64,000 nucleotides of DNA. Source: Candidatus Saccharimonadia bacterium (lineage in GTDB: Bacteria; Patescibacteriota; Saccharimonadia; UBA4664). The stretch lies in assembly GCA_038245115.1 (NCBI GenBank), contig JBBRSS010000003.1, positions 3,298 through 67,297 of the forward strand, given 5' to 3'. A model generated the notes under the pieces. The model was not told the DNA's origin and ran no database searches. It saw only the letters and a list, made by a program, of their open reading frames with translations. Position numbers and translations under genes: made by a program. Of the stretch, positions 1-15,657 are shown in pieces (positions within the stretch are counted from its first letter, which is position 1; the number at the start of each line of letters is the position of its first letter).

Positions 1-435
1 ATCGAAGAGGTCGAAGAGCGAATTGCGCCACTTGATGCGATTTTTGTTGTGGGCGGTTACACCGACTACCTCATGCACGTATTCAACAAAACCGGCTTCT
101 CGAAGTTGCTTCCAAAATTATTGGAAACCAAGGTGTTTGTCGGCAGTAGCGCAGGCTCGATGGTCGCCGGTAAGCGCATAAGTACTGAGGCCTACCAAAG
201 AATCTACGGTGAACGCGGCGACTACGACATCACAGATTACTTAGGGCTTGTAAATTTGGCCATTAAGCCACATCTGGGCTCGCCTGAATTCCCGAACAAT
301 CTGCCCGAAGTACTGGAAGAGGTGGCGAGCGGCGCGGATTTCCCGGTGTATGGCCTGCGAGACGACAGCGCTATAGTGGTCGATGGCAACGAGCAGCGGT
401 TTATCGGTAGCCAACCCTATAAAGTCAAAGGCTAG
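1..435 (+). CDS. Peptidase S51 (dipeptidase E/cyanophycinase-like) family protein, 5'-truncated at window edge
   Basis: Frame-1 translation is open from nt 1; a GSSAGSM motif resembles the S51 catalytic Ser in GxSAG; the ORF continues from upstream of the window. Confidence 0.5.
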   Translation: MEEVEERIAPLDAIFVVGGYTDYLMHVFNKTGFSKLLPKLLETKVFVGSSAGSMVAGKRISTEAYQRIYGERGDYDITDYLGLVNLAIKPHLGSPEFPNNLPEVLEEVASGADFPVYGLRDDSAIVVDGNEQRFIGSQPYKVKG

Positions 436-642
436 GGCGGTATCGCTCCGCCGAAGCGCGATAAATCGAATCTCGAGCGTCCGGGAGCAGGAATCTGGGC
501 AAGCCAAACGATATCCTGAATGAAATTCACGGCGTTGGCTTAGCTTGTGCATCCTGAGTATTCATAACCTACGATTACTAATGGGCCAAACAAGCAGCCC
601 CTGCCGTATAATGTAATTATCTAACAGAGTACAACAACAGAT

Positions 643-2484
643 ATGAAACACGTCCTGCCCTGGCTGAAACAATATTGGGGACTTACGGCGTCCATAAGTG
701 TAACTATCGTCTGTGGGGTACTTTTTTTTGGCTTTGGCCAAACTAAAGCGGCCGATTTACTGACGCTCATATTTTGCGGCATTATGGCTGCATTTTTAAC
801 TGCGGGAATAGTAAAAACCCTGCGCGAAGGTAGTATGGGGGTCGACGTTTTGGCCGTCATGGCAATTATTTCCACGCTGGCAGTGGGGGAATATTGGGCC
901 AGTTTGATTATTGTGCTGATGATGACCAGCGGCGAGGCTCTCGAGAATTATGCCGAAAGTCGAGCTCGCAGTGAGCTTACCGCCCTGCTATCGCACGCCC
1001 CCCAGATCGCCCACAAAATAACCGGGGATACTGTAACTGACGTGCCCGTGAGCACGGTGGCGGTGGGGGATCTGCTACAGGTTAAGCCCGGCGATGTTGT
1101 CCCGGTCGATTCGGTGATTGTGACCGGCCAGTCGGCTTTCGACGAATCTAGTCTAACCGGCGAAAGTTTGCCAGTGGAAAAGAGTGTTAATGATCACCTC
1201 CTGAGCGGTTCGCTCAACGGCAACAGCGTGGTCACCGTGCGTGCTCTTTCCACGGCCCACGACAGCCAGTATGAACAGATTATTGAGCTCGTGAAGGCCG
1301 CCAGCGGCTCAAAATCGCACATGGTTCGGCTGGCTGATCGTTATGCGGTGCCGTTTACCGGGATCTCGTTATTCATCGCCGGCACGGCTTGGGCGGTGTC
1401 GGGCGATCCGCTGCGATTAGCGGAAGTGCTGGTGGTGGCAACCCCTTGCCCATTATTGCTGGGTGCCCCAATTGCGCTCATTTCTGGTATGAGCCGCGCC
1501 GCCAAACACGGTATTATTATGAAGAATGGCAGTGCTCTCGAAGCCCTTGCCCGCGTGCGCACAGTGGCCTTTGATAAAACCGGCACTCTCACTCTGGGCA
1601 AGCCCACGTTGCATAAGATTCATCCCGAGCCAGGCTATACCCAGCACCAATTGCTGCAGTACTCAGCTAGTCTCGAACAGCACTCTGGGCATGTTTTGGC
1701 AAATGCCTTGGTTGAAGCTGCACGTGAGCGGCACATCGAACTTCTCGAGGCTGCGTCGCTGCGCGAGGACACCGGCACGGGGATGTATGCGGTTATTGAC
1801 GGCCAGAGTGTCTTCGTAGGTAAATTCGCAGCCCTGGCAGTGCTAAACATCAAGCCCGTCTCAGCTGCTCCCGACCACACCGCGGTCGCAGTCGCTATCG
1901 ATGGTAAATTTGCCGGATCCATCGAATTTGCCGATGAAGCCCGCGCCAACACCCCGGCTACCCTCAAGTATTTGAATCGTCTCGGTATTTCGCACACCCT
2001 CATGCTCACCGGCGATAATGAGTTCACCGCTAAGCGTATTGGCGCTAATCTTGGTATTGCCGACGTGCGAGCCAATTGTTTGCCCGCCGACAAGCTGGCT
2101 GCCATAAATTCGCTTAGCGCGCAGTTTCTACCGGTGGCCATGGTGGGCGACGGCGTCAACGATGCCCCCGTGCTCGCCGCCGCCAGTGTCGGCATCGCTA
2201 TGGGCGCCAAGGGGTCCACGGCCGCCAGCGAATCGGCCGACGTGGTTATTATGCTCGACGACATCGCCAAGGTGGCCCACGCCATTGATATCTCCCGGCG
2301 AACCATTCATATTGCCCTTCAGAGCATTCTCATTGGCATCGCCATCAGTATCGGCCTCATGCTGCTCGCCAGTACCGGCGTTATACCGGCACCCGTGGGT
2401 GCCGGACTGCAAGAGATTGTCGACGTAATCGTAATTATTAACGCTCTGCGCGCCCACCGCGGTACACTAGCTACCGTTAATTGA
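643..2484 (+). CDS. Heavy-metal translocating P-type ATPase (P1B), lacks N-terminal metal-binding domain, TM motif PCP
   Basis: DKTGTLT phosphorylation motif, GDGVNDAP hinge, TGES actuator motif; ATPCPLLLGAP in place of the usual CPC segment; multiple TM helices; TATAAT at 607-612. Confidence 0.85.
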   Translation: MKHVLPWLKQYWGLTASISVTIVCGVLFFGFGQTKAADLLTLIFCGIMAAFLTAGIVKTLREGSMGVDVLAVMAIISTLAVGEYWASLIIVLMMTSGEALENYAESRARSELTALLSHAPQIAHKITGDTVTDVPVSTVAVGDLLQVKPGDVVPVDSVIVTGQSAFDESSLTGESLPVEKSVNDHLLSGSLNGNSVVTVRALSTAHDSQYEQIIELVKAASGSKSHMVRLADRYAVPFTGISLFIAGTAWAVSGDPLRLAEVLVVATPCPLLLGAPIALISGMSRAAKHGIIMKNGSALEALARVRTVAFDKTGTLTLGKPTLHKIHPEPGYTQHQLLQYSASLEQHSGHVLANALVEAARERHIELLEAASLREDTGTGMYAVIDGQSVFVGKFAALAVLNIKPVSAAPDHTAVAVAIDGKFAGSIEFADEARANTPATLKYLNRLGISHTLMLTGDNEFTAKRIGANLGIADVRANCLPADKLAAINSLSAQFLPVAMVGDGVNDAPVLAAASVGIAMGAKGSTAASESADVVIMLDDIAKVAHAIDISRRTIHIALQSILIGIAISIGLMLLASTGVIPAPVGAGLQEIVDVIVIINALRAHRGTLATVN

Positions 2485-2487
2485 TTA

Positions 2488-2524
2488 GTGGTCGCCCCCG
2501 TTATTAACTAACGGGGGCGACCAC
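2488..2524. terminator. Bidirectional hairpin between convergent ATPase and Clp_N genes
   Basis: Inverted repeat GTGGTCGCCCCCGTTA / TAACGGGGGCGACCAC with a 5-nt loop directly after the ATPase stop. Confidence 0.5.
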
Positions 2525-2551
2525 ATGGGCGATCTGGGTGAGGCGAGTAGC

Positions 2552-3022
2552 TCAAGCTGGGGCTCCGGACCTCGAGGTGAGATGGCCTGCCTTTATGAGC
2601 TGTTCGGCGGTGATTCGCAATTCCTCCACGCCGACGCCGATGCTCTCCAGTATCTTCAGGGCGCCGACATCGGCCTTGTCGATTGCCAGCAGAGCGAGTA
2701 GGAGATGCTCTGGCTCGACAGCTTGGCTGCCCATTTCGGCAGCCATGCTGTAGGCCAACTTGAACATCAACATGCAATCGTCGGTGAACCTGATGGTCTT
2801 GAAAGCAGCCGCCTCGTAGATGTCGTCGAGCCGTCTGTTCGCCGCAACGACGGGGTCGATGTAGACGTGTCGAGCCGCTAACGCGCGGCCCGCGAGCCCT
2901 TCATCGAAGATAAGAGCCAGCAGAATGTGCTTCGTGCCGACCTTTCTGTCGCCGCGTACGCGCGCCCAGCTTTGCGCCAGAGCAATCGTCTTTTCGGTTT
3001 CCTCCGACTGACCTTCGTGCAT
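2552..3022 (-). CDS. Stand-alone Clp N-terminal (Clp_N repeat) domain protein
   Basis: Two Clp_N-type repeats (HILLALIFDE..., EPEHLLLALLAID...) in 156 aa, with no AAA+ domain. Confidence 0.7.
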   Translation of the reverse strand: MHEGQSEETEKTIALAQSWARVRGDRKVGTKHILLALIFDEGLAGRALAARHVYIDPVVAANRRLDDIYEAAAFKTIRFTDDCMLMFKLAYSMAAEMGSQAVEPEHLLLALLAIDKADVGALKILESIGVGVEELRITAEQLIKAGHLTSRSGAPA

Positions 3023-3159
3023 TGGTGCCTCCCTGAGCTAGCAATGGGGGTGTGCAGTCTGCCGGTGGCAGCGCTTGGCATATTATGGCATCGATTATAC
3101 TCAGAATCAAGAATTATTTGTTTTATAGAGCACAACCCGTATAATTGAGCGGTTACCAC

Positions 3160-3233
3160 GGCACCTTGGCGGAGTGGTTACGTAACGGTCTGCAAAACCG
3201 TGTACACGGGTTCGAGTCCCGTAGGTGCCTCCA
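3160..3233 (+). tRNA. tRNA-Cys (GCA)
   Basis: Acceptor stem GGCACCT/AGGTGCC, anticodon loop cuGCAaa, T-arm GGTTCGAGTCC, encoded CCA; TATAAT at 3141-3146. Confidence 0.85.
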
Positions 3234-3271
3234 GTTTTTATATTTTTCGGGCTCCCACGGCCCGACACCCT

Positions 3272-3357
3272 GGGCGGGTGGTGGAATGGTATACACGGGG
3301 GACTTAAAATCCCCTGGCCTCACGGTCTTGCGGGTTCGATCCCCGCCCCGCCTACCA
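3272..3357 (+). tRNA. tRNA-Leu (TAA), type II with long variable arm
   Basis: Anticodon stem GGGGA/TCCCC with loop cuTAAaa, long variable arm, T-arm GGGTTCGATCCCC, ACCA end; 86 nt. Confidence 0.8.
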
Positions 3358-3365
3358 GCAATTAT

Positions 3366-4301
3366 TTATTTGCGCGGCTGTCGCAACTTTCTCAGGCGCC
3401 GCACAATACCCCAAACCGCCAATCCCAGCAGCAACACCAGCGTCCCGCATACAATGTAGAACGTTACTCGCGGCATCAGCAGCATCCAGGCCGACACCGT
3501 CTCTTCGCGGTCCATATACTTCACGTCGGCCGTCACTTTGTACAGACCAATCGGCGCCGAAGAGGGTAGTTTGAGGTCAAATCGACGCACCGTGCCCGGC
3601 AGCACGGCCCCCTTGAAGGGTATTGCCTGGCCAACTTTACCAAACGGGCTCGCTAGCTGCGCTGTGCCTTCGGCGATAAAGTGCGTATTGCCGTCGTTGC
3701 GCATCCGCAGAGTGCCTCGTACCGGCGCTACGGCTTGATACCATGGCACTTTCAACGATTCGATGCTGCCTTTGAGCTTGAGGTCACCATTAACCGTCAG
3801 GTAAAACAAGGTTCCGATTCGCTCTACTCGCGATACAAACGCCCCGCCCTTGCCTGGCGGTGGGACTGTTTCAATGAATACAGCGCCATAGTGCCCACCC
3901 ACCGCGGCGGTTGGTGGCACGTTGATGGTGTACGCGAACGAGCCTTGAGTTCGGGATTTGACCGTAAATGTCCCTACCGGCAGCGTAAACCAGGATACCG
4001 GCGATACGTCTGCCGCCTTGCGGGCGCTCGAGAAGTCACCGAGGTAAGATTCGTCGCTTACCCGGTAGTCAGAGGCAAATATTTTGTAATGGACATCATT
4101 TTCGCCATCATTAATGACGGTAATGTCGCCGTGGTAGGTGCCAGCGGTATCGACTTTCAGATCGAGGCTGGTCGGCGACACCCCGATGCCCTGGACCGCC
4201 CCGTGCGCTGCCATCGGTACAGCCAGGGCCAAAGCCAAAACTGCACCAACGCTCAGGCGCCGCCATGCTTGCCATATTCGGCGAAACCCAGGTTTAGTCA
4301 T
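3366..4301 (-). CDS. Cell-surface protein, DUF916/DUF3324-like (CscA-like), signal peptide plus C-terminal TM anchor
   Basis: N-terminal signal (ALALAVPMAAHG), beta-rich core (VSPTSLDLKV...ITVINDGENDVHYKIF) as in DUF916, C-terminal hydrophobic helix followed by an RRLRKLRQPRK tail. Confidence 0.45.
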   Translation of the reverse strand: MTKPGFRRIWQAWRRLSVGAVLALALAVPMAAHGAVQGIGVSPTSLDLKVDTAGTYHGDITVINDGENDVHYKIFASDYRVSDESYLGDFSSARKAADVSPVSWFTLPVGTFTVKSRTQGSFAYTINVPPTAAVGGHYGAVFIETVPPPGKGGAFVSRVERIGTLFYLTVNGDLKLKGSIESLKVPWYQAVAPVRGTLRMRNDGNTHFIAEGTAQLASPFGKVGQAIPFKGAVLPGTVRRFDLKLPSSAPIGLYKVTADVKYMDREETVSAWMLLMPRVTFYIVCGTLVLLLGLAVWGIVRRLRKLRQPRK

Positions 4302-4303
4302 AA

Positions 4304-4924
4304 TTAGTTCGTGGTTATGGTGTATGTGACGGTGGTCGAGTACGCACCGATGGGCTGCGAACTGTTCACCCTAGCACTATACCAGATGGTGGTGGAGGCC
4401 GAGCCGGTACTGGACGTGGTCTTTACGGTGTAGGGCGAGCCGTTGGCGGGAATTCCCGCGTAAATGATTGCGCTCGGTGCGGCGTTGGAGATTACGGCTC
4501 CGGGTCCGGCACCAAAACTGGCCAAACTGTCCACGCGCCAACCCCAACGATTGTTGGGCAGGGTAGCAGGAGCTGCCGGAGTACCGGCACTGGTAGCGAT
4601 GGTATTTGCACCTGCGACCATGTCGGTCACAGTCGGGCTGGTTTCTTTGAGGGTCACCGTAAAGCCGGCCGTATCGTTAGTGTCGGCCGTCACGGTGTCG
4701 CTATTGGTCGATTGCTTACCAGTAGCGTCAGGGGTGATTGCACCCAGGGTTACTGTCGGCCCCGAAGAATACGAAATAATTACCGGGTTCACGGTTAGGT
4801 TAATCGTTGTATCGGTGGTTTGAGTATCGGCAGCCACCGCGAACGGCAAAGTTAACGCCACCAGGTTTATACCTAGTATCGAGACCGCCAGCGATTTATT
4901 TCGCGTAAGCTTAAGCATTACCAC
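4304..4924 (-). CDS. Secreted Thr-rich protein, WxL-domain-like (CscB/C-like)
   Basis: Signal peptide, Thr/Ser-rich core, C-terminal W-containing motifs (NNRWGWRVD, TTIWYSARV, VTYTITTN) resembling the two WxL motifs; adjacent to the DUF916-like gene, stop/start 3 nt apart. Confidence 0.4.
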   Translation of the reverse strand: MVMLKLTRNKSLAVSILGINLVALTLPFAVAADTQTTDTTINLTVNPVIISYSSGPTVTLGAITPDATGKQSTNSDTVTADTNDTAGFTVTLKETSPTVTDMVAGANTIATSAGTPAAPATLPNNRWGWRVDSLASFGAGPGAVISNAAPSAIIYAGIPANGSPYTVKTTSSTGSASTTIWYSARVNSSQPIGAYSTTVTYTITTN

Positions 4925-5039
4925 AACAATACCCGTATCAGAAGCAGAATGTCAAATCAGTTATGCCCTTGCACCTTAACCATGCGGATATCCAAGCAAT
5001 TTGGTATACTAGTTACAACCAACAACAAGGACTATATAT

Positions 5040-5597
5040 ATGTCGTCAACAATTATTATTCTTATCGTCATTGCCGTCCTGGCGGGGGCGTTGATTGCGG
5101 TCTATAACGGCCTCATAAAATCTCGGGTCCGGGTCGACGAAGCTTGGAGCGATATTACTGTCCAGCTGAAGCGTCGTTACGACCTCATTCCTAACCTAGT
5201 TAGCACAGTGAAGGGCTACGCCGCTCACGAGTCCAAGGTGTTCCAGGCGGTCACCGAGGCTCGAACCCAGGCCATGAACGCTACCGGTATCGCCCAGAAG
5301 GCCGAGACCGAGAATATGCTGGCTGATACCCTCAAAAGCCTGTTCGCCGTGTCCGAGGCCTACCCCGACCTGAAGGCAAATCAGGGCTTTCAGCAGCTAC
5401 AAGCCGAAATTACCGATACCGAAGACAAAATCCAAGCTTCGCGCCGGTTCTACAACGGTAACGTACGAGATTACAACATTAAGCTCCAGGTCTTTCCTAC
5501 CAATCTGTTGGCTGGAATGCTCGGCTTTACTCACCGCGACTTTTTTGAAGTCGGCAATCAAGCCGAAGTTGAAAAGCCTGTCGAAGTTAAATTTTAA
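5040..5597 (+). CDS. lemA: LemA family protein
   Basis: N-terminal TM helix plus the conserved LemA core (KSRVRVDEAWSDITVQLKRRYDLIPNLV...). Confidence 0.85.
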   Translation: MSSTIIILIVIAVLAGALIAVYNGLIKSRVRVDEAWSDITVQLKRRYDLIPNLVSTVKGYAAHESKVFQAVTEARTQAMNATGIAQKAETENMLADTLKSLFAVSEAYPDLKANQGFQQLQAEITDTEDKIQASRRFYNGNVRDYNIKLQVFPTNLLAGMLGFTHRDFFEVGNQAEVEKPVEVKF

Positions 5598-5609
5598 GGA
5601 GCCAATTCA

Positions 5610-6167
5610 ATGACGCTCTCACAATACAGAAGTAGTAGCAGTTGGTTGGGAGCAATCGAGCTCGGTCCGGAACTGATGACCCTCGCCGAGGAACTTCCCG
5701 CCAGCGAAGAAATGGGCCTCAGCCTGCAGCTGCGGCAGTTAATGGTGAAGCTGCCCACGGCTATCGGTGCCGACCTAGTGCTGGGCACTACAACGCGCAA
5801 AACCATATGTTTTCGCCTCCAGGCTACACTTGAACTAATCGAGCGTGTCTATCCGGCTCTAGATACCGCCGGCGTGCGGGCCGATGCGGACAACCTAGTT
5901 GAACTTATGATGTCCGACGAGCAGTTTGCGGCCGAGCCGGAGCCAGAGCCTGCGGCGCCCGCCCCCGAGGCAGAGCCCCCCGAGGTGCCGACGCTCGAAC
6001 CTTCCGACACTCAGGTACTCCCAAGTGAACCTCAAATTGCCGCGCCGATTACTCTGCCGCCAACCGAGGTAGCCCCCTCGCCGGCAGCCGATACAATTCC
6101 GGTTCTTCCGACCGTCGATCAGATAGCGCCCACCTCCGTTCCCGTATCCACCGAACCTACCCCATAG
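5610..6167 (+). CDS. Hypothetical protein with Pro/Glu/Ala-rich C-terminal half
   Basis: ORF packed between lemA and htpX; low-complexity PEPEPAAPAPEAEPPE tail. Confidence 0.4.
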   Translation: MTLSQYRSSSSWLGAIELGPELMTLAEELPASEEMGLSLQLRQLMVKLPTAIGADLVLGTTTRKTICFRLQATLELIERVYPALDTAGVRADADNLVELMMSDEQFAAEPEPEPAAPAPEAEPPEVPTLEPSDTQVLPSEPQIAAPITLPPTEVAPSPAADTIPVLPTVDQIAPTSVPVSTEPTP

Positions 6168-6174
6168 GAGAAAC

Positions 6175-7056
6175 ATGTACACTCAGATTGCGTCCAATAA
6201 GCGCCGCAGCATCTATTTGCTGATATTCTTTGTGCTGTTTGTAGGCGGCCTCGATTATCTGCTATCGCGGGCTTTTCACCAGCCGGCCGCATTTGTCCCC
6301 ATCCTTATTATCGCGATCATCTACGCCGGCATTTCCTACTTTTTTTCGGCCAAGATCGCTCTTAGTATGAGCGGCGCCAAGGAAATCCAAAAAGCCGATG
6401 CCCCGGAGCTGTACCGAATTGTGGAAAACCTCTCGATTGCCGGCGGCCTGCCTATGCCCAAGGTCTATATTGTCGACGATGCTGCCCCTAATGCCTTCGC
6501 CACCGGTCGCGACCCTGAGCACGCCGTGGTGGCCGTTACCACCGGCATATTGCCGCTGCTGAGCAAGACCGAGCTTGAGGGCGTACTGGCTCACGAACTC
6601 AGCCACGTCGGTAACTATGATATTCGGTTTATGGCCCTGGTAGTCGCGCTTGTTTCGGTGGTCTCGCTGATTGCCGACTTATTGCTCCGGCTATCGTTTT
6701 GGGGCGGGGGAGACGATGAAGAGGGCGGTAATAACCAATTATTCCTTATTCTGAGTATTGCCGGCGCTATTTTGGCTCCCCTCGTTGCCGCTATGATTCA
6801 GTTTGCCGTTTCCCGCCAACGCGAATACCTGGCCGATTCCTCTGGAGCATTACTCACCCGCTACCCCGAAGGTTTGGCCAGCGCCCTCGAAAAAATTGGC
6901 GGCGCTGACCTGCCGATGAAGCACGCCAATTCGGCTACCGCCCCGCTGTATATCTCGAACCCTCTCAAGGGCCGCAGCTTCGCCGGCCTGTTCAACACCC
7001 ACCCGCCCATGGAAGAACGCATCCGCCGCTTAAGGGAAATGGAGTCCAAACAATGA
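6175..7056 (+). CDS. htpX: Zinc metalloprotease HtpX (M48)
   Basis: HELSHV zinc-binding motif, 4 TM segments, HtpX-like length. Confidence 0.9.
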   Translation: MYTQIASNKRRSIYLLIFFVLFVGGLDYLLSRAFHQPAAFVPILIIAIIYAGISYFFSAKIALSMSGAKEIQKADAPELYRIVENLSIAGGLPMPKVYIVDDAAPNAFATGRDPEHAVVAVTTGILPLLSKTELEGVLAHELSHVGNYDIRFMALVVALVSVVSLIADLLLRLSFWGGGDDEEGGNNQLFLILSIAGAILAPLVAAMIQFAVSRQREYLADSSGALLTRYPEGLASALEKIGGADLPMKHANSATAPLYISNPLKGRSFAGLFNTHPPMEERIRRLREMESKQ

Positions 7057-7841
7057 CCAAGCCAACTCACAAACACGACCTGCCCAGCGCCTGGATTCTC
7101 TGGCGTGCTTCCTGGAAAAATTTCCGGGTCTATTGGCTGCACTATGTCAAGGTTATGGCTGTGGTTTCCCTACCGATCAACCTCCTTGGTCTCTCTACTA
7201 GCCTCGCTACAGACGCCTCACTAAACGCCTACATCTCAATCGCCGCCATCCTCATGAACGTAGCGCTCATCTGGGCCATCTTCCAAATTGAAAAGACCGG
7301 CCAGGCCCCAAGGTTATCGTCGAGTTATTATGACGGTTCGGTAGCTATTGTTCGCTATCTTCTGGTCTCCATATCGCTGGTATTGATGCTGGTTCCGGCT
7401 GCCTTTGGCGCTGCCATTTATCTTTCCAGCATTCGTGCCATCGACACCGCTAGTTCCACCCCCGAGCAGCTTCTTATAGGCTTAGTTTGCGTCCTTATTG
7501 CTTTGCCCAGCGTTTGGTTGATTGTCCGCTTTGGCCTTGCGCCTATTGTTGCTATTGTTTACGGCCTAAGCCCGTTCGCCGCTCTGCGCTACGCCCGCAG
7601 TCTCACTCTTGGCCACTTCTGGCAGACCGCTGGTCGTTACGGCATGTTAGGCTTGGGCCTCATCGCCTTGGCCGTTCCCATTGCGCTTGCGACCGCCGGC
7701 TTGTCCTTGCTCAAGCTCGGACCCCTTGCCACACTCTTTGGTCAGCTCGCTACCACCTTTACCGCCCTGCCGTTAGCTAACATATATTTGCTTCACCTTT
7801 TGCGCGGTCTTGAGCACCAATCTGTCAGTCTTGACAAATAG
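7053..7841 (+). CDS. Polytopic membrane protein, unknown function
   Basis: ATGA overlap with the htpX stop (translational coupling); 6 or more hydrophobic helices. Confidence 0.5.
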   Translation: MTKPTHKHDLPSAWILWRASWKNFRVYWLHYVKVMAVVSLPINLLGLSTSLATDASLNAYISIAAILMNVALIWAIFQIEKTGQAPRLSSSYYDGSVAIVRYLLVSISLVLMLVPAAFGAAIYLSSIRAIDTASSTPEQLLIGLVCVLIALPSVWLIVRFGLAPIVAIVYGLSPFAALRYARSLTLGHFWQTAGRYGMLGLGLIALAVPIALATAGLSLLKLGPLATLFGQLATTFTALPLANIYLLHLLRGLEHQSVSLDK

Positions 7842-7914
7842 GCGTAAGTAATACATAATAGTATTCAGTCCTGGAACACTCCGTTCCAGGCCCCGGCCGA
7901 TAGGGGAAAGTGCC

Positions 7915-8352
7915 GTGTCCAAACAAACTGTTCCAGCCATCGTTCGCAAGTATGCCGATGATGTTGCGACCTTGATGCCAAGCGATGGCATGGTCGTCAA
8001 CCGCAAGACCTCCACCGAGCCCACCTTCCGGGCGCTAACCGAACGGGTCATCACCGAAGCCTTCCCGGATCGAGGTGGGGATACCGATGTTACTGAGTGT
8101 CTCGTATTCCTCGAGGGGCTTGGCTCCAGCGTAGCTGTCGGTTCCATCTGGGATTGGTTCGGCTTCGTCTATCGTGGTGGAAATACGTACCACGCAATTC
8201 GCGCGAACCTCGAGCGGTCTTTCCTCGCGACGACGGTCGAGGCTTTGCTGTATTGCGATCCGCAGTACGCAGATCTCCAAGACGCAAACGCCGAACGCTG
8301 TCGCCTCAACGCGAATCGCCTCAGCCTACCCGCGGACGTAGTCTACGCGTAG
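7915..8352 (+). CDS. Hypothetical protein
   Basis: GTG-initiated ORF with coding-like composition, followed by a strong hairpin. Confidence 0.35.
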   Translation: MSKQTVPAIVRKYADDVATLMPSDGMVVNRKTSTEPTFRALTERVITEAFPDRGGDTDVTECLVFLEGLGSSVAVGSIWDWFGFVYRGGNTYHAIRANLERSFLATTVEALLYCDPQYADLQDANAERCRLNANRLSLPADVVYA

Positions 8353-8376
8353 CTCCGGCGCCGTCCACCCCCAGCC

Positions 8377-8416
8377 CCCGATCTCACACTCACAGCGTTG
8401 TGGGTGTGAGATCGGG
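8377..8416 (+). terminator. Strong stem-loop (18-bp stem, 1 mismatch) downstream of the 7915-8352 ORF
   Basis: CCCGATCTCACACTCACA gcgt TGTGGGTGTGAGATCGGG. Confidence 0.4.
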
Positions 8417-8482
8417 CCAAGCCCGAGTTTTCAACTCCCGAGTTGACGCCTCAGGTTAGGTATTTCCGCTATAATAGTAGTT

Positions 8483-10501
8483 ATGAATCACACCGACGCC
8501 AACGAGCGCATCCAGAAGCTTCGCACTCAGATCAACGAGTACCGTTATTACTACCATGTACTCGACGAATCCATCATGCCAGAAGCCGCCGCCGACAGCC
8601 TCAAACACGAGCTCACCCAGCTCGAAGAGCAATATCCCGACCTCATCACCCCCGACAGTCCCACCCAGCGCGTGGCCGGCGTACCCAGCTCAAAATTCGC
8701 CAAAATCACCCACACCCAGCGCATGATTAGCCTCAACGATGTCTTCGACACCGGCGAGGTCGAGGCCTGGGCCGCCCGTATCGCCAAGCTCCTTCCTGGT
8801 GAGAACATCGAATACTTTGCCGATACCAAAATGGACGGTCTGGCCTGCGCCATCACCTACCAAGACGGCGTACTCACTCAAGCCGTCACCCGTGGCGACG
8901 GTACGGTCGGGGAGGACGTCACCATCAACGTGCGCACCATCAACTCCGTCCCCCTCACGCTGCGCCGCTCCCAAGATCACCCCGAATTTCTCACCGGCCG
9001 CACCGAAATCCGCGGCGAAATCGTTATGCACAAATCCGATTTCGCCGCCCTCAACCAGGCCAACGAGGCTGCCGGCAAGCCATTATTCGCCAACCCCCGC
9101 AACCTCGCCGCCGGCACCATCCGCCAGCTCGATCCCGCCCTCGTCGCCGCCCGCCCCCTCACTTTCTACGCCTACGACCTCCTGCGCGACGATCCCGCCG
9201 ACGTGCCCACCTACGATTTCGCCTACGCCACCATCCGCGCCTTCGGCCTGCCCGCCAACCACCGCGCCACCACCTTCGCCACCATCCCCGAAGTCATGAA
9301 ATTCGTCGACTACTGGGACCAGCAGCGCCAAACCCTGCCCTTCAATACCGACGGCCTCGTCATCAAGGTCAACAACCGCGATCAATACGCCCGCCTCGGC
9401 ATCGTCGGCAAAGCCCCCCGCGGCGCCGTCGCCTTCAAATACCCCGCCGAAGAAGCCACCACCATCGTCAAAGACATCGTCATCAGCATCGGCCGCACCG
9501 GCGCCGCCACCCCCATCGCCACCTTCGATCCGGTAGTAGTCGCCGGCACCACCGTCCAACACGCCAGCCTCCACAACGCCGACGAAATCGCCCGCCTCAA
9601 CGTGCGCGTCGGTGACACCGTCATCATCTACAAGGCCGGCGACATCATCCCCAAGGTCCAAGAATCCCTGCCCAAACTCCGCCCCACCAACTCCATTCTC
9701 TTCAACATGGAGTCAGAACTCGCCCGCCAGTACCCCGAATTAGAATTTGAACGGCCCGAAGGGGAAGTAATCTACCGCGTCAAAGGTGCTACCGGTCCAT
9801 TATTCCTCAAAAAAGCCCTTGAGCATTACGCCTCCAAATCCGCCCTCGACATCGATACCCTCGGCGAGAAAAACGTCATCGCCCTCGTAGATTCCGGCTT
9901 CATCACCGACCCCGCCGACATCTATATCCTCTCCGTCGCCAACCTCCTCGGCCTCGACCGCTTCGCCGCAACATCCGCCCGCAAACTCATCGACGCCATC
10001 CACGCCAGCAAAACCCCCACCCTCCCGCGCTTCATCTACGCCCTCGGCATCCGTCACGTCGGCGAACAAACCGCCCTCGATCTGGCCGAGGCCTTCGGCA
10101 CCCTCGAAAATCTATCCCAAGCCACCCTCGACCAGCTCGAAGCCGTCGAAGGCATCGGCACCGTTGTCGCCGAATCCATCCTGGCCTGGTTATCAGACGA
10201 CGACAACCAAGACCTCCTCACCAAATTCACCCAACTCGGCGTCCAACCCCAACCCTTCACCAAAGCCACCGGCCCCCTCACCGGCGTCAATTTCGTTATC
10301 ACCGGCACATTAGAAATGGGTAGCCGCGACCAAGTCGCCGCCAAACTAGTCGCCCTCGGCGCCAAAGAGCAAAACTCCGTCACCAAAGACACCACCTACC
10401 TCATCGTCGGCGAAAATCCGGGCGGTTCTAAGTTTACTAAGGCGCAAAAACTCGGCACCAAAACTCTGGACGAGCAAGCTCTTACTGAGCTTCTAGGCTA
10501 G
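8483..10501 (+). CDS. ligA: NAD-dependent DNA ligase LigA
   Basis: KMDGLA adenylation motif, OB/Zn/HhH/BRCT order, 672 aa; TATAAT ends 7 nt before the ATG (leaderless). Confidence 0.95.
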   Translation: MNHTDANERIQKLRTQINEYRYYYHVLDESIMPEAAADSLKHELTQLEEQYPDLITPDSPTQRVAGVPSSKFAKITHTQRMISLNDVFDTGEVEAWAARIAKLLPGENIEYFADTKMDGLACAITYQDGVLTQAVTRGDGTVGEDVTINVRTINSVPLTLRRSQDHPEFLTGRTEIRGEIVMHKSDFAALNQANEAAGKPLFANPRNLAAGTIRQLDPALVAARPLTFYAYDLLRDDPADVPTYDFAYATIRAFGLPANHRATTFATIPEVMKFVDYWDQQRQTLPFNTDGLVIKVNNRDQYARLGIVGKAPRGAVAFKYPAEEATTIVKDIVISIGRTGAATPIATFDPVVVAGTTVQHASLHNADEIARLNVRVGDTVIIYKAGDIIPKVQESLPKLRPTNSILFNMESELARQYPELEFERPEGEVIYRVKGATGPLFLKKALEHYASKSALDIDTLGEKNVIALVDSGFITDPADIYILSVANLLGLDRFAATSARKLIDAIHASKTPTLPRFIYALGIRHVGEQTALDLAEAFGTLENLSQATLDQLEAVEGIGTVVAESILAWLSDDDNQDLLTKFTQLGVQPQPFTKATGPLTGVNFVITGTLEMGSRDQVAAKLVALGAKEQNSVTKDTTYLIVGENPGGSKFTKAQKLGTKTLDEQALTELLG

Positions 10502-10532
10502 GCCACAAGAAGCAATGTGCTACAATACACTC

Positions 10533-10660
10533 ACAATGCCTTCGGGCTCCGAGGACTCCACCCCAGGGGTCCGAAGTTGGTAACGGTCAGTCAGATGACA
10601 TTATCAGCGCCACAATGCCTTCGGGCTCCGAGGACTCCCCATAAGGGAGTCCGATTTTAT
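10533..10660 (+). repeat. Tandem 2x repeat of a UUCG-tetraloop hairpin element in the ligA 3' region; second copy forms an intrinsic terminator
   Basis: Perfect 27-nt direct repeat ACAATGCCTTCGGGCTCCGAGGACTCC at 10533 and 10612; each holds GCC-UUCG-GGC plus a GGACTCC.../GGRGTCC stem; the second is followed by TTTTATTT. Confidence 0.5.
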
Positions 10661-11058
10661 TTCCCGGAAGCTATTTCTTTGATCAGCCGCATTTGTATAT
10701 CTCTGAATGTAACCGGTTCCATGGTGTATAGCTTGCGCACCAGCCTTCGTCCATCGAATGCGCGTAACTGCGAAATAATTGCTGCATACATCTGCCCGTC
10801 ATGGCGGTACGAAAAATAGTATGGGTTGGCCGCTTTTACCTTGGTCGAAAGCGGGACTCCCCAAAACAGATTTGTGTCAAAGCCTCGCACAATCAGCACT
10901 GGACGTTCAAATCGGTCATTGTGGCCATCCTGCTCACGTCCAACATTCACGCCGATCGAACAATGCCAGACTTCGCGTTCGGCAAAAAATGCCCCGGCAT
11001 CAGCCTCATCCAGCCGCTTCTTTAGCGCATTCCATCCATCGAAATCTTTGCTCCACAT
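10657..11058 (-). CDS. MazF/PemK (Kid)-fold toxin-like protein, no cognate antitoxin ORF evident
   Basis: Core VWHCSIGVNVGREQDGHNDRFERPVLIVRGFDTNLFWGVPLSTKVK matches the PemK/MazF pattern (G.EQ.G.RP.L.V....VPLTS) after a 27-aa N-extension. Confidence 0.5.
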   Translation of the reverse strand: MWSKDFDGWNALKKRLDEADAGAFFAEREVWHCSIGVNVGREQDGHNDRFERPVLIVRGFDTNLFWGVPLSTKVKAANPYYFSYRHDGQMYAAIISQLRAFDGRRLVRKLYTMEPVTFRDIQMRLIKEIASGK

Positions 11059-11078
11059 AGTGATATTTTATCACAAAA
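11059..11078. promoter_or_regulatory. Perfect palindrome GTGATATTTTATCAC abutting the MazF-like start codon
   Basis: GTGATA-TTT-TATCAC at 11060-11074, immediately 5' of the ATG on the minus strand. Confidence 0.35.
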
Positions 11079-11235
11079 CCGAACAAAACAAGAACAAGTA
11101 TACGTCACCTCCATTATCACCGACACCCTCGCCACGGGCACCCTTGCGGGCCGCCGCCGCACCTAACCTTCCCGATTTCGCGCGGGCCGGGCATGTATAG
11201 CTGACTTTACATCCAGTCTGCGCTACAATGCCATC

Positions 11236-11451
11236 ATGACCCACAGCGAAACCGTTCAAAATATAGTGGCTATTCGCCGGCGCGAGTTGGGGCTAACTCA
11301 GGAGGAGCTGGCCGAACGGGTGCGGGTGACGCGGCAAACCATTATCTCCATCGAGAAGGGGAATTATGTTCCGTCGGTAATGCTGGCAATTAAATTGGCC
11401 CGCGTCTTTGGTGCGGCCGTTGAGGAGGTTTTTACGTATGAAGGCAAATAG
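11236..11451 (+). CDS. XRE-family HTH transcriptional regulator (71 aa)
   Basis: LGLTQEELAERVRVTRQTIISIEKG HTH_3 signature; CTGACT-17-TACAAT promoter with -10 ending 6 nt before the ATG. Confidence 0.7.
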   Translation: MTHSETVQNIVAIRRRELGLTQEELAERVRVTRQTIISIEKGNYVPSVMLAIKLARVFGAAVEEVFTYEGK

Positions 11452-11806
11452 GGCCAGGCTGTCTGAGTGGGCGATTGGGGCGGTGAGCGCCGTAGCCTTG
11501 CTGTTGCTCGTGGATCCTTGGGGGATGCTCATGCCCCCGGCCGTCGTAATGGCGCTCGGTGTGGCGGTGGCCGTGCTGGTGATTGGTTTTGCCATGTTCT
11601 GGTGGCGCGAGCAACCGCGCGACGAACGCGAAAGCCTGTATGCACTGCGCGCCGGCCGTGTATCGTATTTGGCCGGCGGGGCGGTATTGCTGGCCGGAGT
11701 GGTCTACCAGGCGTTTATGCACCACATCGATCCGTGGCTCCCGCTGGCGCTCGGTGCGATGATACTTACCAAATTGGTAGTCAGCGCCTGGTGGCAGCAA
11801 AAGTAA
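11438..11806 (+). CDS. Small membrane protein co-transcribed with the XRE regulator
   Basis: ATG overlaps the end of the XRE gene; 3-4 TM helices; the ORF track extends to 11408 but the RBS-less overlap start at 11438 is preferred. Confidence 0.45.
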   Translation: MKANRARLSEWAIGAVSAVALLLLVDPWGMLMPPAVVMALGVAVAVLVIGFAMFWWREQPRDERESLYALRAGRVSYLAGGAVLLAGVVYQAFMHHIDPWLPLALGAMILTKLVVSAWWQQK

Positions 11807-11861
11807 AGTTGACTTTACATTTTCCACGTCGTACATTGGGAACAATAACGAGGGAATCAAT

Positions 11862-12119
11862 ATGCAATCATCAAAAACAATCACAGCGGTCGCGGCAGTC
11901 GTAATTGTGCTCGTGCTTGGCGGAGTGGGGCTAGCCTACAAGTCGCATGCTGACCAAGTCAACGCCGACAACGTCAAAATGCAGGCCGACACCAAAATGA
12001 AGGCCGACGAGGCCGCCATGAAAGCCAAGGCCACACCTACTCCCACCGCCACCCCCGACGCCATGATGCACGAGACCTCGCCCACCCCCACCCCTGATGC
12101 CATGAAGGCCGGAAACTAA
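11862..12119 (+). CDS. Small N-terminally anchored protein, Lys/Ala/Thr-rich
   Basis: GAGGGA RBS 8 nt upstream; TM helix then low-complexity tail; promoter TTGACTTTACAT-N11-TACATT upstream. Confidence 0.4.
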   Translation: MQSSKTITAVAAVVIVLVLGGVGLAYKSHADQVNADNVKMQADTKMKADEAAMKAKATPTPTATPDAMMHETSPTPTPDAMKAGN

Positions 12120-12122
12120 CCG

Positions 12123-13826: not shown

Positions 13827-13869
13827 GCCGTAAAATTCCCGTATCACCAAATTACCCCACCCAAAAAAC

Positions 13870-14088
13870 CTACCCCCGCCGCTCCACGTCAATCCGGTCA
13901 ACCAACTCGGTGAGCTTAGTCTTGGTGTCGGCCAGAATCGCCTTCACCTCGGCCCGCTGCTCATCGCTGCCGCCCAGCATTATCCGCTGAAACAACCGCG
14001 ATATATCGCCCAGCTCCACACTAAACTCCCGCGACCGGGCATGCAGCTGCTTGCGCTTCTCGGACCACAAATTCTTCTCAGTCGCCAT
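13870..14088 (-). CDS. Hypothetical 72-aa protein
   Basis: AGGAGG Shine-Dalgarno 7 nt upstream on the minus strand; charged helical composition. Confidence 0.4.
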   Translation of the reverse strand: MATEKNLWSEKRKQLHARSREFSVELGDISRLFQRIMLGGSDEQRAEVKAILADTKTKLTELVDRIDVERRG

Positions 14089-14103
14089 ATGCGCCTCCTG
14101 CCT

Positions 14104-14145
14104 CTAGTATAATCTCCTCATGACCGCCGACCCCCCCAGATGCGG
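14104..14145 (+). repeat. Copy A of a duplicated ~40-nt promoter/start segment
   Basis: CTAGTATAATCTCCTCATGACCGCCGACCCCCC... vs copy B CTAGATATAGTATCCTCATGACCCCCGACCCCCGC... Confidence 0.4.
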
Positions 14146-14201
14146 TTTTCGAAACCGAATTACGTGTTCGCTTTTTGTTCATAATACGATAAAATACAGA
14201 T

Positions 14202-14303
14202 ATGATTGTCTTCGTAGACGAATCCGGAATTCACCTCAAAACCGGCCACAGCGTGTTTGTGGTTGTCCAAATCGATCGCGCTTCAGGCGCTCGTTGGCTT
14301 TAA
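14202..14303 (+). pseudogene. Remnant N-terminus of a DUF3800-like protein (33 codons)
   Basis: MIVFVDESGIH...FVVVQIDRA resembles the DUF3800 start (M.IY.DESG); terminates after 33 aa in an AT-rich noncoding stretch. Confidence 0.3.
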
Positions 14304-14448
14304 AACGGCATAAAAAATACCACCCCTTGCGGAGTGGTCAGCTGGTCCGGGTAGCCCGTAGGGCTTTTCCATTCGGAATTTGTCCCCGGTAGCTCGTTAC
14401 AGGATGATACTATCATAAAACGCCAGTACCAGTAAATAACACTATCAA

Positions 14449-14491
14449 CTAGATATAGTATCCTCATGACCCCCGACCCCCGCATATACGG
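14449..14491 (+). repeat. Copy B of the duplicated promoter/start segment
   Basis: See copy A; copy B precedes a 68-aa ORF (14466-14672) of uncertain reality. Confidence 0.4.
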
Positions 14492-14845
14492 CCACATCGC
14501 GCCCTACCCCCACGGTCTCATCAACCAGGGCTCTGGCAACGCCACCGCCCGCTCCATCCAGCTCCGCCAAGGCGGCACCCTCAACGAGCCCGCCCTCTTC
14601 GAACTCTTCCGCGCCGTCATCGCGTATAATTGGGCGGCTGGCGGAAGCTCCGAATGTTCAAATAAAGCATAACCTAGCTTCTAAACCGAAAGACCTTTGA
14701 ATTATTTACATAACTATACCCTTTAGCCTTGATAAGCCCATGTGATACAACTCTAAAAAAATTAGCATAAGCGTGATAGAAATTATGAGTTTGACTAATT
14801 CGCGCCGATCACCCAAACTACAGCCATAATTCCAGGGAATCAGTT

Positions 14846-15382: not shown

Positions 15383-15569
15383 AACGTACGGCTGGCCTGA
15401 CATCCCCGGCCGATACAAGGTCAACCATGACGGAAAAATTGTTACCTTGACGCAACCCGCGAAGCTGTCCACGCCAAGCCTATCGCTGCAGAGCCCGCGT
15501 TACTACCTGCTCGAAGACATAAAACAGTCAAAGGATCTCGATGAACTTACGCAGCGGGCATTTGGGTGA
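15383..15569 (+). pseudogene. NUMOD4-like (HNH homing-endonuclease N-terminal motif) fragment without a start codon, +1 frame relative to the preceding ORF
   Basis: +1-frame translation YGWPDIPGRYKVNHDGKIVTL matches the NUMOD4 pattern W.DI.G..Y.VS..G.V.S; no ATG; ends at TGA 15567-15569. Confidence 0.25.
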
Positions 15570-15657
15570 TAGCTCCAAATCTTGCTACAACGAATTATCG
15601 CAGTAGAGCGTAGTGTGCAGTTGACAGAGAAACAAGAGCTGATACACTGTATAGGTC

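Follow-up and report, generated by a model that had tools for sequence, protein, structure and literature searches.

A stand-alone two-gene operon in Saccharimonadia encoding homologues of the Pam pilus chaperone and of the C-terminal domain of Pam pilins

The locus and its inheritance

Two adjacent genes lie on the minus strand of the DNA studied here (hereafter the window, 64,000 nucleotides from a Candidatus Saccharimonadia bacterium), in open reading frames of 206 codons at 4304..4924 and 311 codons at 3366..4301, exactly where a preliminary description of this DNA had placed them. We call them the pilin gene and the chaperone gene, on evidence given below. They are translationally coupled, with a gap of 2 nt between the stop codon of the pilin gene and the ATG of the chaperone gene, which is the downstream member. 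Homologues of the small protein begin with MLKL and are about 204 residues long, and the protein recorded for this contig has exactly the 204-residue form, so that the ATG at 4918 is most likely the true start, rather than the GTG at 4924; all pilin residue numbers here nonetheless refer to the 206-residue frame. Homologues were found for both products (108 for the small protein and 46 for the 311-residue protein, with E-values down to 1e-108 and 1e-205, respectively), and the genes are adjacent and in the same order at four further loci (L001, L005, L006 and L008); both are therefore real genes and not chance reading frames. The features of the locus are collected in Table 1. The promoter-like site listed there would yield a nearly leaderless mRNA, and such consensus matches were no more numerous than expected from shuffled sequence.

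Table 1. Coordinates of the features of the locus (window positions)
Feature	Position	Strand	Remarks
Pilin gene	4304..4918	-	204 aa from ATG 4918; stop 4304-4306; alternative GTG 4924 gives 206 aa
Pilin signal peptide	4832..4918	-	Residues 3-31, MLKLTRNKSLAVSILGINLVALTLPFAVA; hydropathy, low-pLDDT N-terminus, position conserved among relatives (alignment A2)
Mature-pilin N-terminal extension	4763..4831	-	Residues 32-54, ADTQTTDTTINLTVNPVIISYSS; conserved among relatives (alignment A2)
Ig-like pilin domain	4307..4762	-	Residues 55-206; homologous to strand-accepting Pam C-terminal domain
Membrane-anchored chaperone gene	3366..4301	-	311 aa; stop 3366-3368
Chaperone signal peptide	4200..4301	-	About residues 1-34; helix 6-27, hydropathy
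Chaperone Ig-like domain 1	3786..4196	-	About residues 36-172; DUF916/WxLIP_PGBD-like; strands 39-170
Chaperone Ig-like domain 2	3474..3776	-	About residues 176-276; strands 178-275
C-terminal transmembrane helix of chaperone	3402..3467	-	Residues 279-300, VTFYIVCGTLVLLLGLAVWGIV; hydropathy, model helix, conserved in family alignment A1
Chaperone basic cytoplasmic tail	3369..3401	-	RRLRKLRQPRK; basic tails conserved in family alignment A1
tRNA-Cys(gca) and tRNA-Leu(taa)	3160..3357	+	Convergent with operon; conserved flanking marker, not a component of the system
Promoter-like TTGACA-18-TATTGT	4926..4955	-	Directly upstream of pilin start; consensus match

The tRNA-Leu(taa) gene reported earlier beside the pair is indeed there, at 3272-3357(+) and 8 nt from the stop codon of the chaperone gene, with tRNA-Cys(gca) at 3160-3233; the identical two tRNAs flank the pair at L006 and L008. 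The neighbors in the window are these tRNAs and genes for a Clp_N protein, LemA and HtpX. A context consisting of a P-type ATPase, tRNA-Cys, tRNA-Leu(taa), the pair, LemA, HtpX and LigA is common to a relative whose chaperone is 45% identical and to UBA6017, which was the one genome found in a related-locus search with a single protein. The closest relatives all belong to the Saccharimonadia or the Patescibacteria, no integrase is adjacent, and neither gene has a paralogue within the 64-kb window. Because of the synteny and the typical GC content (GC and GC3 of the pair deviate by no more than 0.5 sd from those of the genes of the window), we consider the pair to have been inherited vertically. 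The preliminary description had offered lateral acquisition as one explanation for a cell-surface module next to a tRNA gene; the synteny, which includes both tRNAs, and the typical composition lead us to reject it.

The membrane-anchored protein

The 311-residue protein had been described as having a signal peptide, a C-terminal membrane anchor and a basic tail, and hydropathy and an AF2 model (pLDDT 91.9) bear this out. A hydrophobic signal-like helix at residues 6-27 is followed by two beta-sandwich domains and by a helix at 278-307 that contains a hydrophobic stretch of 22 residues; with its basic tail, the protein has a pI of 9.96. The signal peptide cleavage site was read by eye at about G34/A35. 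Domain 1 holds an invariant GGHY motif (G135, G136, H137, Y138), and domain 2 has invariant N202, H207 and R239 in the motifs NxGNxH and VLPGTxRRF.

The same description compared this protein to the DUF916/DUF3324 (CscA) proteins of Firmicutes. The likeness is evident in fold, as the WxLIP of E. faecium ranked first in a Foldseek search of the PDB with the model (9i1y/9i25; 9i1y_A at E=1.5e-11), followed by RbmA and then by the chaperones CfaA, CsuC, FimC, Caf1M and PapD. It is evident in profile comparison as well: hhalign aligned the family (A1) with ten annotated Firmicute "DUF916 and DUF3324" proteins over 230 columns (residues 29-266, both domains; probability 97.7%, E=2e-12), and EfmWxLIP1 was the top match of the family profile among PDB sequences, at E=0.03 over domain 1. 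It does not extend to Pfam matches in the window itself. The profiles PF13731, PF06030 and PF11797, which had been proposed as a check, were all absent from a scan of both window proteins in which no Pfam family matched at E<=1. Across the family, PF06030 is weakly matched (E<=1) in 24 of 34 members and its cut-off is passed only by a protein designated P0041 (33 versus 27.3 bits), and PF11797 is missing from the 25 most widely matched families (E<=1) that were listed for each of the two chaperone alignments. An N-terminal motif conserved in WxLIPs, NQIDKxxxYFDLK (PMC10599100), is also absent from the 311-residue protein, which has only SLDLK (residues 45-49) at the equivalent place.

[quoted passage not shown] PamC and PamD (WP_260763277.1 and WP_260763284.1 in M. 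amalyticus, where PamT is WP_260763289.1) are PapD/FimC-like chaperones with a C-terminal transmembrane helix (10.64898/2026.03.03.709456). P0041, a distant homologue of the 311-residue protein (phmmer E=7e-13), is encoded in a pam operon (L002) in the order PamT (308 bits), two Pam pilins (88 and 155 bits), P0041 itself and PamR (404 bits), with ATP synthase nearby; its assignment to the PamD position was made by gene order only. The family of the window chaperone aligned with that of P0041 over 271 columns, including the transmembrane helix (hhalign probability 100%, E=4.4e-58). The canonical pam-operon chaperones are DUF916-positive in 26 of 26 cases, whereas the window chaperone falls below the Pfam DUF916 thresholds. 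By sequence, the DUF916/WxLIP family includes the canonical Pam chaperones, and the 311-residue protein is a distant WxLIP/CscA homologue that is much closer to the chaperone of pam operons. The chaperone family has 21,091 representatives.

Gene neighborhoods tie the chaperone family to pilins in three independent contexts in which it co-occurs with Pam_pilin_C proteins. At L005 the pair has three two-domain Pam-like pilins and a chaperone paralogue as neighbors, and at L007 a Pam_pilin_C protein is followed by a chaperone homologue. For at least 19 chaperone homologues, the longest contig has the same size as that of a pilin homologue. The pair in the window is outside any pam operon, in a context of housekeeping genes and tRNAs rather than ATP synthase genes, and no match to PamT, PamR or a further Pam pilin was found among the few other window ORFs scanned.

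The small protein

The small protein fits its first description as a Thr-rich secreted protein: a signal-like hydrophobic stretch lies at its N-terminus (cleavage at about A31/A32, read by eye), Thr makes up 18.6% of its residues overall and 20.6% of the mature part, and Cys is absent. It is rich in Thr and Ser, carries the W-containing motifs NRWGWRVD and TIWYSARV, and ends in GAYSTTVTYTITTN. These motifs had suggested a WxL-like (CscB/C) protein. The WxL domain is a C-terminal domain of 160-190 aa with two Trp-x-Leu motifs on adjacent strands (PMC9772566). In our alignments the corresponding positions of the small protein read G-F-T-V (87-90) and T-Y-T-I (200-203), neither of them W-x-L, and WGWRV (127-131) is a separate conserved element that does not fall at a WxL-motif position. 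A tyrosine in place of tryptophan had been noted in the last motif; some annotated WxL proteins also have Y at WxL-motif positions, and this is a matter of resemblance only.

Profile methods gave no more than that. PF13731 matched none of 38 homologues of the small protein at E<=10. An HMM built from ten annotated small WxL proteins scored the window protein at 4.4 bits and its family at -1.6 on average, against -2.7 +/- 2.5 for shuffled sequences. Alignment of the family with WxL proteins by hhalign gave E=0.06 with four of them and E=0.0045, at a probability of 7.8%, with ten; the C-terminal domains of Pam pilins aligned with WxL proteins at E=0.26. The fold matches listed for the small protein contain no WxL chain. 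The Pfam scan, hhalign and the comparison of HMM scores with shuffles together lead us to reject membership in the WxL family, leaving a resemblance at the level of motifs.

The preliminary description had named a match to pilin or adhesin families as the result that would speak against a WxL protein, and the small protein does match a pilin family, through the C-terminal domain of Pam pilins. The model NF058581 (CPR_Pam_pilin_C) aligns with residues 55-205 over profile positions 3-146 of 148 at E=1.2e-5, with a score of 25.4 bits that is under the curated cut-off of 55 bits, and 19 of the 38 relatives match it as well (best E=3.2e-7). By hhalign, the family (A2) aligned with the C-terminal domains of pam-cluster pilins (A4) over 147 columns (probability 96.7%, E=3.8e-10). 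An HMM of those domains scored the window protein at 28.4 bits and the family at 25.4 on average, against -8.4 +/- 3.3, and at most 10.3, for shuffles. The structural comparison that had been proposed, which returned a WxLIP for the larger protein, gave for the pilin model the chaperone-usher pilins CfaB, FimA, CsuA/B and FimG as top Foldseek matches, while a search of PDB sequences with the pilin profile returned chance matches only, such as SDR and GAPDH. To judge from these profile comparisons, the small protein is a homologue of the Pam pilin C-terminal domain, and it resembles the pilins of chaperone-usher systems.

It is not a complete Pam pilin of the known kinds. Ahead of the C-terminal domain the mature protein has no more than about 23 residues, without the N-terminal domain of the PamA/B/E architecture, and NF058579 (the equivalog for the tip pilin PamT) had no match in the small protein and does not appear in the list of families matched by the 38 relatives. 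Those residues, the N-terminal extension, alternate in hydrophobicity, were modeled with a pLDDT of about 92 at residues 41-54, and directly precede the Pam_pilin_C match, at the place where the two-domain Pam pilins have their linker (STLSLTVDN..., ASIINITARV...). We propose that the extension is a donor strand. From its position it would be equivalent to the Pam linker, an equivalence that neither BLASTP nor hhalign showed. The last strand of the pilin domain carries the invariant residues G193, Y195, Y201 and T202.

Comparison with known systems

The locus shares most with the Pam pilus. Both occur in Saccharimonadia, within the same group at the phylum level, and neither has an usher. The window chaperone has the signal peptide, the two-domain PapD-like fold and the C-terminal transmembrane helix of the Pam chaperones, and both window proteins have homologous counterparts in the pam operon: the chaperone itself and the strand-accepting domain of the pilins. 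They differ in that the window pilin is without the nine-strand N-terminal domain found in PamA, PamB and PamE, is not PamT, retains a short strand at its N-terminus and contains no cysteines, and in that the window locus is a stand-alone operon of two genes amid housekeeping genes, not grouped with ATP synthase, PamT or PamR. The preliminary description had allowed for a divergent variant of the Csc system; it was right about the divergence, but among described systems the CPR Pam pilus, and not Csc, comes closest.

For the WxL/WxLIP clusters of the Lactobacillales and Bacillales we relied on two papers (PMC10599100 and PMC9772566) and on the structures 9i1y and 9i25, the latter of a WxLIP bound to a long WxL protein. 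The anchored protein of these clusters has the same plan of signal peptide, two Ig-like domains, transmembrane helix and basic tail, the small secreted partner is of similar size and is encoded before the anchored protein (small WxL and then WxLIP in 5 of 5 annotated Firmicute clusters in which a small WxL gene directly precedes a WxLIP gene), and two conserved strands are alike at the motif level, natural W-to-Y variants included. In addition, AF2 predicts that a WxLIP strand inserts into WxL (PMC10599100). The window pair differs in its phylum, in having no detectable WxL domain, in the absence from its chaperone of a PF11797 match and of NQIDKxxxYFDLK, and in having no LPXTG partner at the locus and one small protein rather than at least two WxL proteins, so that the definition of a WxL gene cluster by Hassan and Williamson (at least one WxLIP and at least two WxL proteins in a span of a few genes, frequently accompanied by an LPXTG protein) does not describe it. 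Moreover, the presumed function of WxL proteins is peptidoglycan binding and not polymerization.

The chaperone-usher pili of Gram-negative bacteria share with the window pair the fold of the chaperone, which is like that of PapD, FimC and CsuC. Their chaperones are soluble, however, whereas that of the window is membrane-anchored, and the window proteins match none of their Pfam families by sequence. No usher gene adjoins the pair, whose neighbors are tRNAs and LemA, and CPR bacteria are known to lack a classical outer membrane. [quoted passage not shown]

Proposed function and alternatives

Based on these comparisons, the pair is probably a vertically inherited operon for a chaperone-pilin module of the Pam pilus type, reduced to a minimum and working without an usher. 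Both products would be exported by Sec, their signal peptides being visible in the sequence and cleavage being presumed. Sequence and model suggest that the 311-residue protein is then held in the cytoplasmic membrane by its C-terminal helix, with the tail inside and the Ig-like domains facing outward. By homology, the ectodomain of this chaperone would capture the newly exported pilin and lend a strand to its incomplete Ig fold (donor-strand complementation), and the N-terminal strand of one pilin may then, again by homology, take the place of the strand that the chaperone had lent to the following subunit (donor-strand exchange). The product could be either a thin homopolymeric fiber or a specialized segment or adaptor of a Pam pilus encoded elsewhere in the genome. 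By analogy with the Pam pili of Ca. Mycosynbacter amalyticus, its likely role is surface contact with a host bacterium. Polymerization of the Pam pilins has been seen by cryo-EM. Weighing against this reading are the pilin's score under the NCBIfam cut-off, the position of the pair outside a pam operon, and the Pam mechanism itself, which is known from a preprint and built in part on models (10.64898/2026.03.03.709456).

We considered the possibility that the small protein does not polymerize at all and instead forms a static complex of the WxL/WxLIP kind, bound one-to-one to the anchored protein or attached to the cell wall, as a surface platform of the sort proposed for the Firmicute Csc/WxL clusters. 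The 311-residue protein has its best fold match in a WxLIP and is homologous to WxLIP over both domains, the genes form a one-to-one pair in the small-WxL/WxLIP order, and some Firmicute clusters are simple pairs as well. The strand insertion predicted for WxLIP and WxL (PMC10599100) would suit such a complex, as would the hhalign P-value of 0.0045 for the N-terminal half of the small protein against WxL and the paired motifs GFTVTLK and GWTLTAK, and YSTTVTYTI and YTTTIVWNL (YESKLTYSI in a pXO1 protein annotated as WxL). Yet no member of the small-protein family matches the Pfam WxL model, the WxL-HMM scores are within those of shuffled controls, and the listed fold matches include no WxL chain. 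The small protein is instead homologous to the C-terminal domain of pilins that polymerize, and its conserved N-terminal strand sits where the Pam pilins have a donated linker. We therefore regard a static complex as unlikely, while giving it more weight than the other alternatives.

It is considerably less probable that the two Ig-like surface proteins are unrelated, such as an adhesin next to an anchored receptor or enzyme-like protein, and that their likeness to pilus components amounts to a shared beta-sandwich fold. Homology at the profile level, beyond the fold, ties each of them to the matching component of pam operons; their adjacency and translational coupling are strictly conserved, and three independent contexts have the chaperone family alongside Pam_pilin_C proteins. 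Lateral transfer of a Csc/WxL module from Firmicutes, with insertion at a tRNA gene, is effectively refuted. The pair does adjoin tRNA-Leu(taa), and Firmicute plasmids commonly carry proteins of the DUF916 type, but the context is conserved in the relative with 45% identity and in UBA6017, GC and GC3 are typical, there is no integrase next to the pair, the nearest relatives all come from the Saccharimonadia or the Patescibacteria, and the chaperone family is far nearer to the CPR pam chaperones (E=4e-58) than to the Firmicute WxLIPs (E=2e-12).

Implications

Pam pili were described in 2026 as a CPR-specific filament for reaching host bacteria (10.64898/2026.03.03.709456). As a minimal chaperone-pilin module, the pair would represent a conserved, pared-down form of that machinery, with one single-domain pilin and its own anchored chaperone, carried by about a hundred Saccharimonadia sequence clusters whose members are called "hypothetical" under current family models. 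It would also offer a simple system for testing donor-strand assembly without an usher.

The membership of Pam chaperones in the DUF916/WxLIP family, along with the fold match, links the Pam and WxLIP literatures, which do not cite each other. We would tentatively suggest, as a possibility that we do not favor at present, that the Csc/WxL-WxLIP clusters, the Pam pili of the CPR and the chaperone-usher pili of diderms are branches of one ancient superfamily based on donor-strand complementation. If so, the two-gene module would be its minimal usher-less form in monoderms, with the order and topology of the small-WxL/WxLIP pairs found on Firmicute plasmids, and WxL domains would be pilin-type domains that have diverged, F or Y standing here in the place of W. 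WxL proteins would then be held, and perhaps polymerized, by strand complementation and not only by binding to peptidoglycan, and, if the link between the two families holds, the WxLIP/CscA proteins of Firmicute WxL clusters could be assembly chaperones.

Two coupled genes in a conserved setting

The two neighbouring minus-strand genes of the preliminary description are present with every element that it described, the start of the first being moved. Homologues of its product, the small protein or pilin, start at MLKL and the record for this contig is a 204-aa form, so the true start is most likely the ATG at 4918. Because only 2 nt lie between the stop codon of this gene and the ATG of the next, which encodes the large protein or chaperone, the pair is almost certainly co-transcribed and translationally coupled. 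Upstream of the pilin gene there is a single promoter-like site, a consensus match of chance frequency; it ends 8 nt 5' of the ATG, so that the pilin mRNA would have little or no leader. Both ORFs are genuine genes: homologues number 46 for the 311-aa protein and 108 for the small protein, almost all of them in metagenome bins of Saccharimonadia or Patescibacteria, and the nearest GTDB genome is Patescibacteria bacterium UBA6017 (85% identity).

Features of the gene pair, its surroundings and other parts of the window
Feature	Position	Strand	Remarks
Small-protein (pilin) ORF	4304..4924	minus	206 aa counted from GTG
Large-protein (chaperone) ORF	3366..4301	minus	311 aa
tRNA-Leu(taa)	3272-3357	plus	convergent with the pair
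tRNA-Cys(gca)	3160-3233	plus	convergent with the pair
Promoter-like site	4916-4955		
Region resembling a type I restriction-modification system	15658-23910		
Low-GC segments	18799-20043; 23209-23910		GC 0.47, under the window mean of 0.55
Secreted Peptidase_A4 family protein	24016-25059		113.6 bits; GC 0.63, unusually high for the window
Probable mobile element	58331 to about 63200		
tRNA-Leu(tag)	58331-58416	plus	overlapped by 3' end of recombinase gene
Large serine recombinase gene	58395-59954	minus	Resolvase (78 bits) and Recombinase domains

The position next to a tRNA gene was part of what had suggested lateral acquisition, a reading not supported by synteny, composition and the lack of an adjacent integrase. 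The comparison locus L006, whose chaperone shares 45% identity with the 311-aa protein, has the order of the window (LigA, x, HtpX, x, LemA, pilin, chaperone, tRNA-Leu(taa), tRNA-Cys(gca), P-type ATPase), and the same two tRNAs, Leu(taa) and Cys(gca), stand beside the pair in UBA6017. GC and GC3 of both genes are at most 0.5 sd from those of the window's genes, and no integrase is adjacent to the pair. The tRNA adjacency is ancestral synteny.

Elsewhere in the window, the recombinase gene is followed by genes for DUF5681, an HD_4 protein and an SRAP peptidase, and this region is probably a mobile element integrated at tRNA-Leu(tag). Judged solely by the sizes and sequences of its ORFs (one of 504 aa, one of 1058 aa and two that are specificity-like), the region at 15658-23910 resembles a type I restriction-modification system.

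Kinship of the large protein

The 311-aa protein carries the signal peptide, C-terminal membrane anchor and basic tail originally ascribed to it, in sequence (N-terminal signal-like helix, 22-residue hydrophobic stretch at 279-300, tail RRLRKLRQPRK, pI ~10) and in the AlphaFold2 model on the family alignment, which is confident (pLDDT 91.9) and comprises a signal helix, two beta-sandwich domains (strands at 39-170 and at 178-275) and, at the C-terminus, a long helix. By itself it matched no Pfam or NCBIfam model. Weak matches to PF06030 (DUF916, now WxLIP_PGBD) were found in 24 of 34 family members, and one distant member, P0041, exceeds the gathering score (33 vs 27.3 bits). Among all PDB sequences the best match of the family profile is E. 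faecium WxLIP1 (E=0.03), while a Foldseek search of the PDB with the model placed solved E. faecium WxLIP on top (9i1y, 9i25; E=1.5e-11), ahead of RbmA and then the chaperone-usher chaperones CfaA, CsuC, FimC, Caf1M, FaeE and PapD. Against ten genuine "DUF916 and DUF3324 domain-containing" proteins that annotated Firmicute plasmids encode, hhalign aligned the family over residues 29-266, that is, both domains (prob 97.7%, E=2e-12). Together, these PF06030, PDB, fold and hhalign results indicate that the remote relationship to CscA/WxLIP is real. The proposed DUF916/DUF3324 (CscA)-like core is therefore upheld as homology over both domains, but the protein falls below Pfam thresholds and PF11797 had no match among the families listed in the Pfam scans. 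The WxLIP motif NQIDKxxxYFDLK is also absent.

A closer relative than the Firmicute WxLIP is the chaperone of the Pam pilus. In a preprint of June 2026, filaments of Ca. Mycosynbacter amalyticus, a parasite from the Saccharimonadia, were solved and the system was named the Pam pilus; the pilins PamA and PamB, each of two domains, form the polymer by donating a linker strand into the neighbour's C-terminal Ig-like domain. Further products of the operon are PamE, PamT (a single-domain tip pilin), an anchored RbmA-like PamR, and PamC and PamD, two PapD/FimC-like chaperones with an unusual C-terminal TM helix, and an usher is absent (10.64898/2026.03.03.709456). P0041 is encoded in exactly such an operon (locus L002, 6083-11905), which reads PamT (308 bits, cut-off 240), two Pam pilins (88 and 155, cut-off 55), P0041 and PamR (404, cut-off 300), with ATP-synthase genes nearby. 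Since this agrees with the accession order PamT-PamA-PamE-PamD-PamR of the preprint (10.64898/2026.03.03.709456), we infer from gene order only that P0041 occupies the PamD position. The 311-aa and P0041 families can be aligned across 271 columns, the TM helix among them (hhalign prob 100%, E=4.4e-58), and PF06030 matched all 26 sampled P0041-family members, which are chaperones of canonical Saccharimonadales pam operons; the 311-aa protein, the WxLIPs of Firmicutes and the chaperones of canonical pam operons therefore form one superfamily. It is very large: at E<=1e-3, the 311-aa family profile finds 21,091 representative proteins.

Several P0041-family members bear the NCBI name [quoted passage not shown], and neither WxL nor DUF916 is mentioned in the preprint (10.64898/2026.03.03.709456). 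Work on Pam and work on WxL/WxLIP seem to have been published without reference to each other.

A Pam-type pilin domain in the small protein

The small protein is Thr-rich and secreted, as first described: Thr makes up 18.6% (20.6% of the mature part), Cys is absent, and an N-terminal hydrophobic signal-like segment is followed by a chain ending ...TIWYSARVNSSQPIGAYSTTVTYTITTN. Its sole curated-library match is NF058581, "CPR_Pam_pilin_C" (E=1.2e-5; 25.4 bits, under the 55-bit cut-off), over residues 55-205 and 144 of 148 profile positions; 19 of 38 relatives match too. Against a Pam pilin reference alignment of seven linker-plus-C-terminal-domain segments from Pam clusters, hhalign of the small-protein family gave prob 96.7% (E=3.8e-10), and the Pam C-terminal-domain HMM scored the protein at 28.4 bits, composition-preserving shuffles giving -8.4 +/- 3.3 (maximum 10.3).

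Tests of membership of the WxL family did not place the small protein there. The profile check proposed for it came out negative, neither window protein matching Pfam and PF13731 (WxL) matching no member of the small-protein family even at E<=10. Ten annotated small WxL proteins aligned with the N-terminal half only (hhalign prob 7.8%, E=0.0045), a WxL HMM scored the family no better than shuffles, and no WxL chain is among the fold matches listed. What remains is a motif-level resemblance, seen in the N-terminal strand (TTINLTVNPVIISYS; WxL proteins TTATVKVNSGGIKIS), the first conserved strand (GFTVTLK; GWTLTAK) and the last (YSTTVTYTI; YTTTIVWNL). "Y replacing W" is thus a fair description of the sequence but not a sign of family membership.

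Among annotated Firmicute clusters (plasmid loci L009, L011, L013 and L015, including B. anthracis pXO1), a small WxL gene lies directly upstream of the WxLIP gene, and some contain nothing but that pair, to which an LPXTG gene may be added. In the pXO1 protein that is annotated as WxL, the last conserved strand reads YESKLTYSI, with LTYSI in place of the second WxL motif.

The small protein lacks the N-terminal beta-sandwich of PamA/B/E. PamT was ruled out as an identity because NF058579 does not match. Upstream of the C-terminal domain there are only ~23 mature residues, ADTQTTDTTINLTVNPVIISYSS, conserved, rich in alternating hydrophobic residues and placed with high confidence in the model. 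They occupy the place of the donated linker in two-domain pilins (STLSLTVDN..., ASIINITARV...), an equivalence to which BLASTP and hhalign lend no statistical support. The pilin is more conserved than the chaperone (e.g. 63% vs 45% identity in the L006 genome), which fits a structural subunit.

So does the comparison locus L005, where the pair has as neighbours a paralogous chaperone (hhalign E=1.7e-21) and three Pam-like pilins of two domains each; for this reason we keep open an accessory subunit with its own chaperone. There (34-16897 of an 829-kb Saccharimonadia contig) the pair is flanked on one side by a 2281-aa protein and on the other by a divergent Pam-like cluster, which comprises three 361-377-aa pilins that match Pam_pilin_C weakly, a Laminin_G_3 protein and the 312-aa paralogous chaperone.

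A distinct variant of the Pam system

Homology, fold, topology and pairing of the two proteins are established here; the functional account is computational throughout and leans partly on a preprint. In the mechanism that we favour, Sec would export both proteins, the anchored chaperone would take up the pilin on the outer side of the cytoplasmic membrane by donor-strand complementation, and the N-terminal strand would then link subunits by donor-strand exchange, with no usher involved. The product would be a thin homopolymer or else a specialised segment within the Pam pilus, with a likely role in host contact.

The locus is homologous to the Pam chaperone-pilin system and would work like it. 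It differs in its single-domain pilin carrying an N-terminal strand, in the chaperone dedicated to that pilin and in being a stand-alone two-gene operon; both proteins score under the current family cut-offs, so both genes are annotated hypothetical. A divergent variant was thus rightly suspected, but it is a variant of the Pam system, related to WxL/WxLIP through the chaperone only and resembling chaperone-usher systems in fold only. More speculatively, and in our judgement rather unlikely, WxL clusters, Pam pili and chaperone-usher pili may form one donor-strand superfamily, of which the window pair would be the minimal monoderm form.
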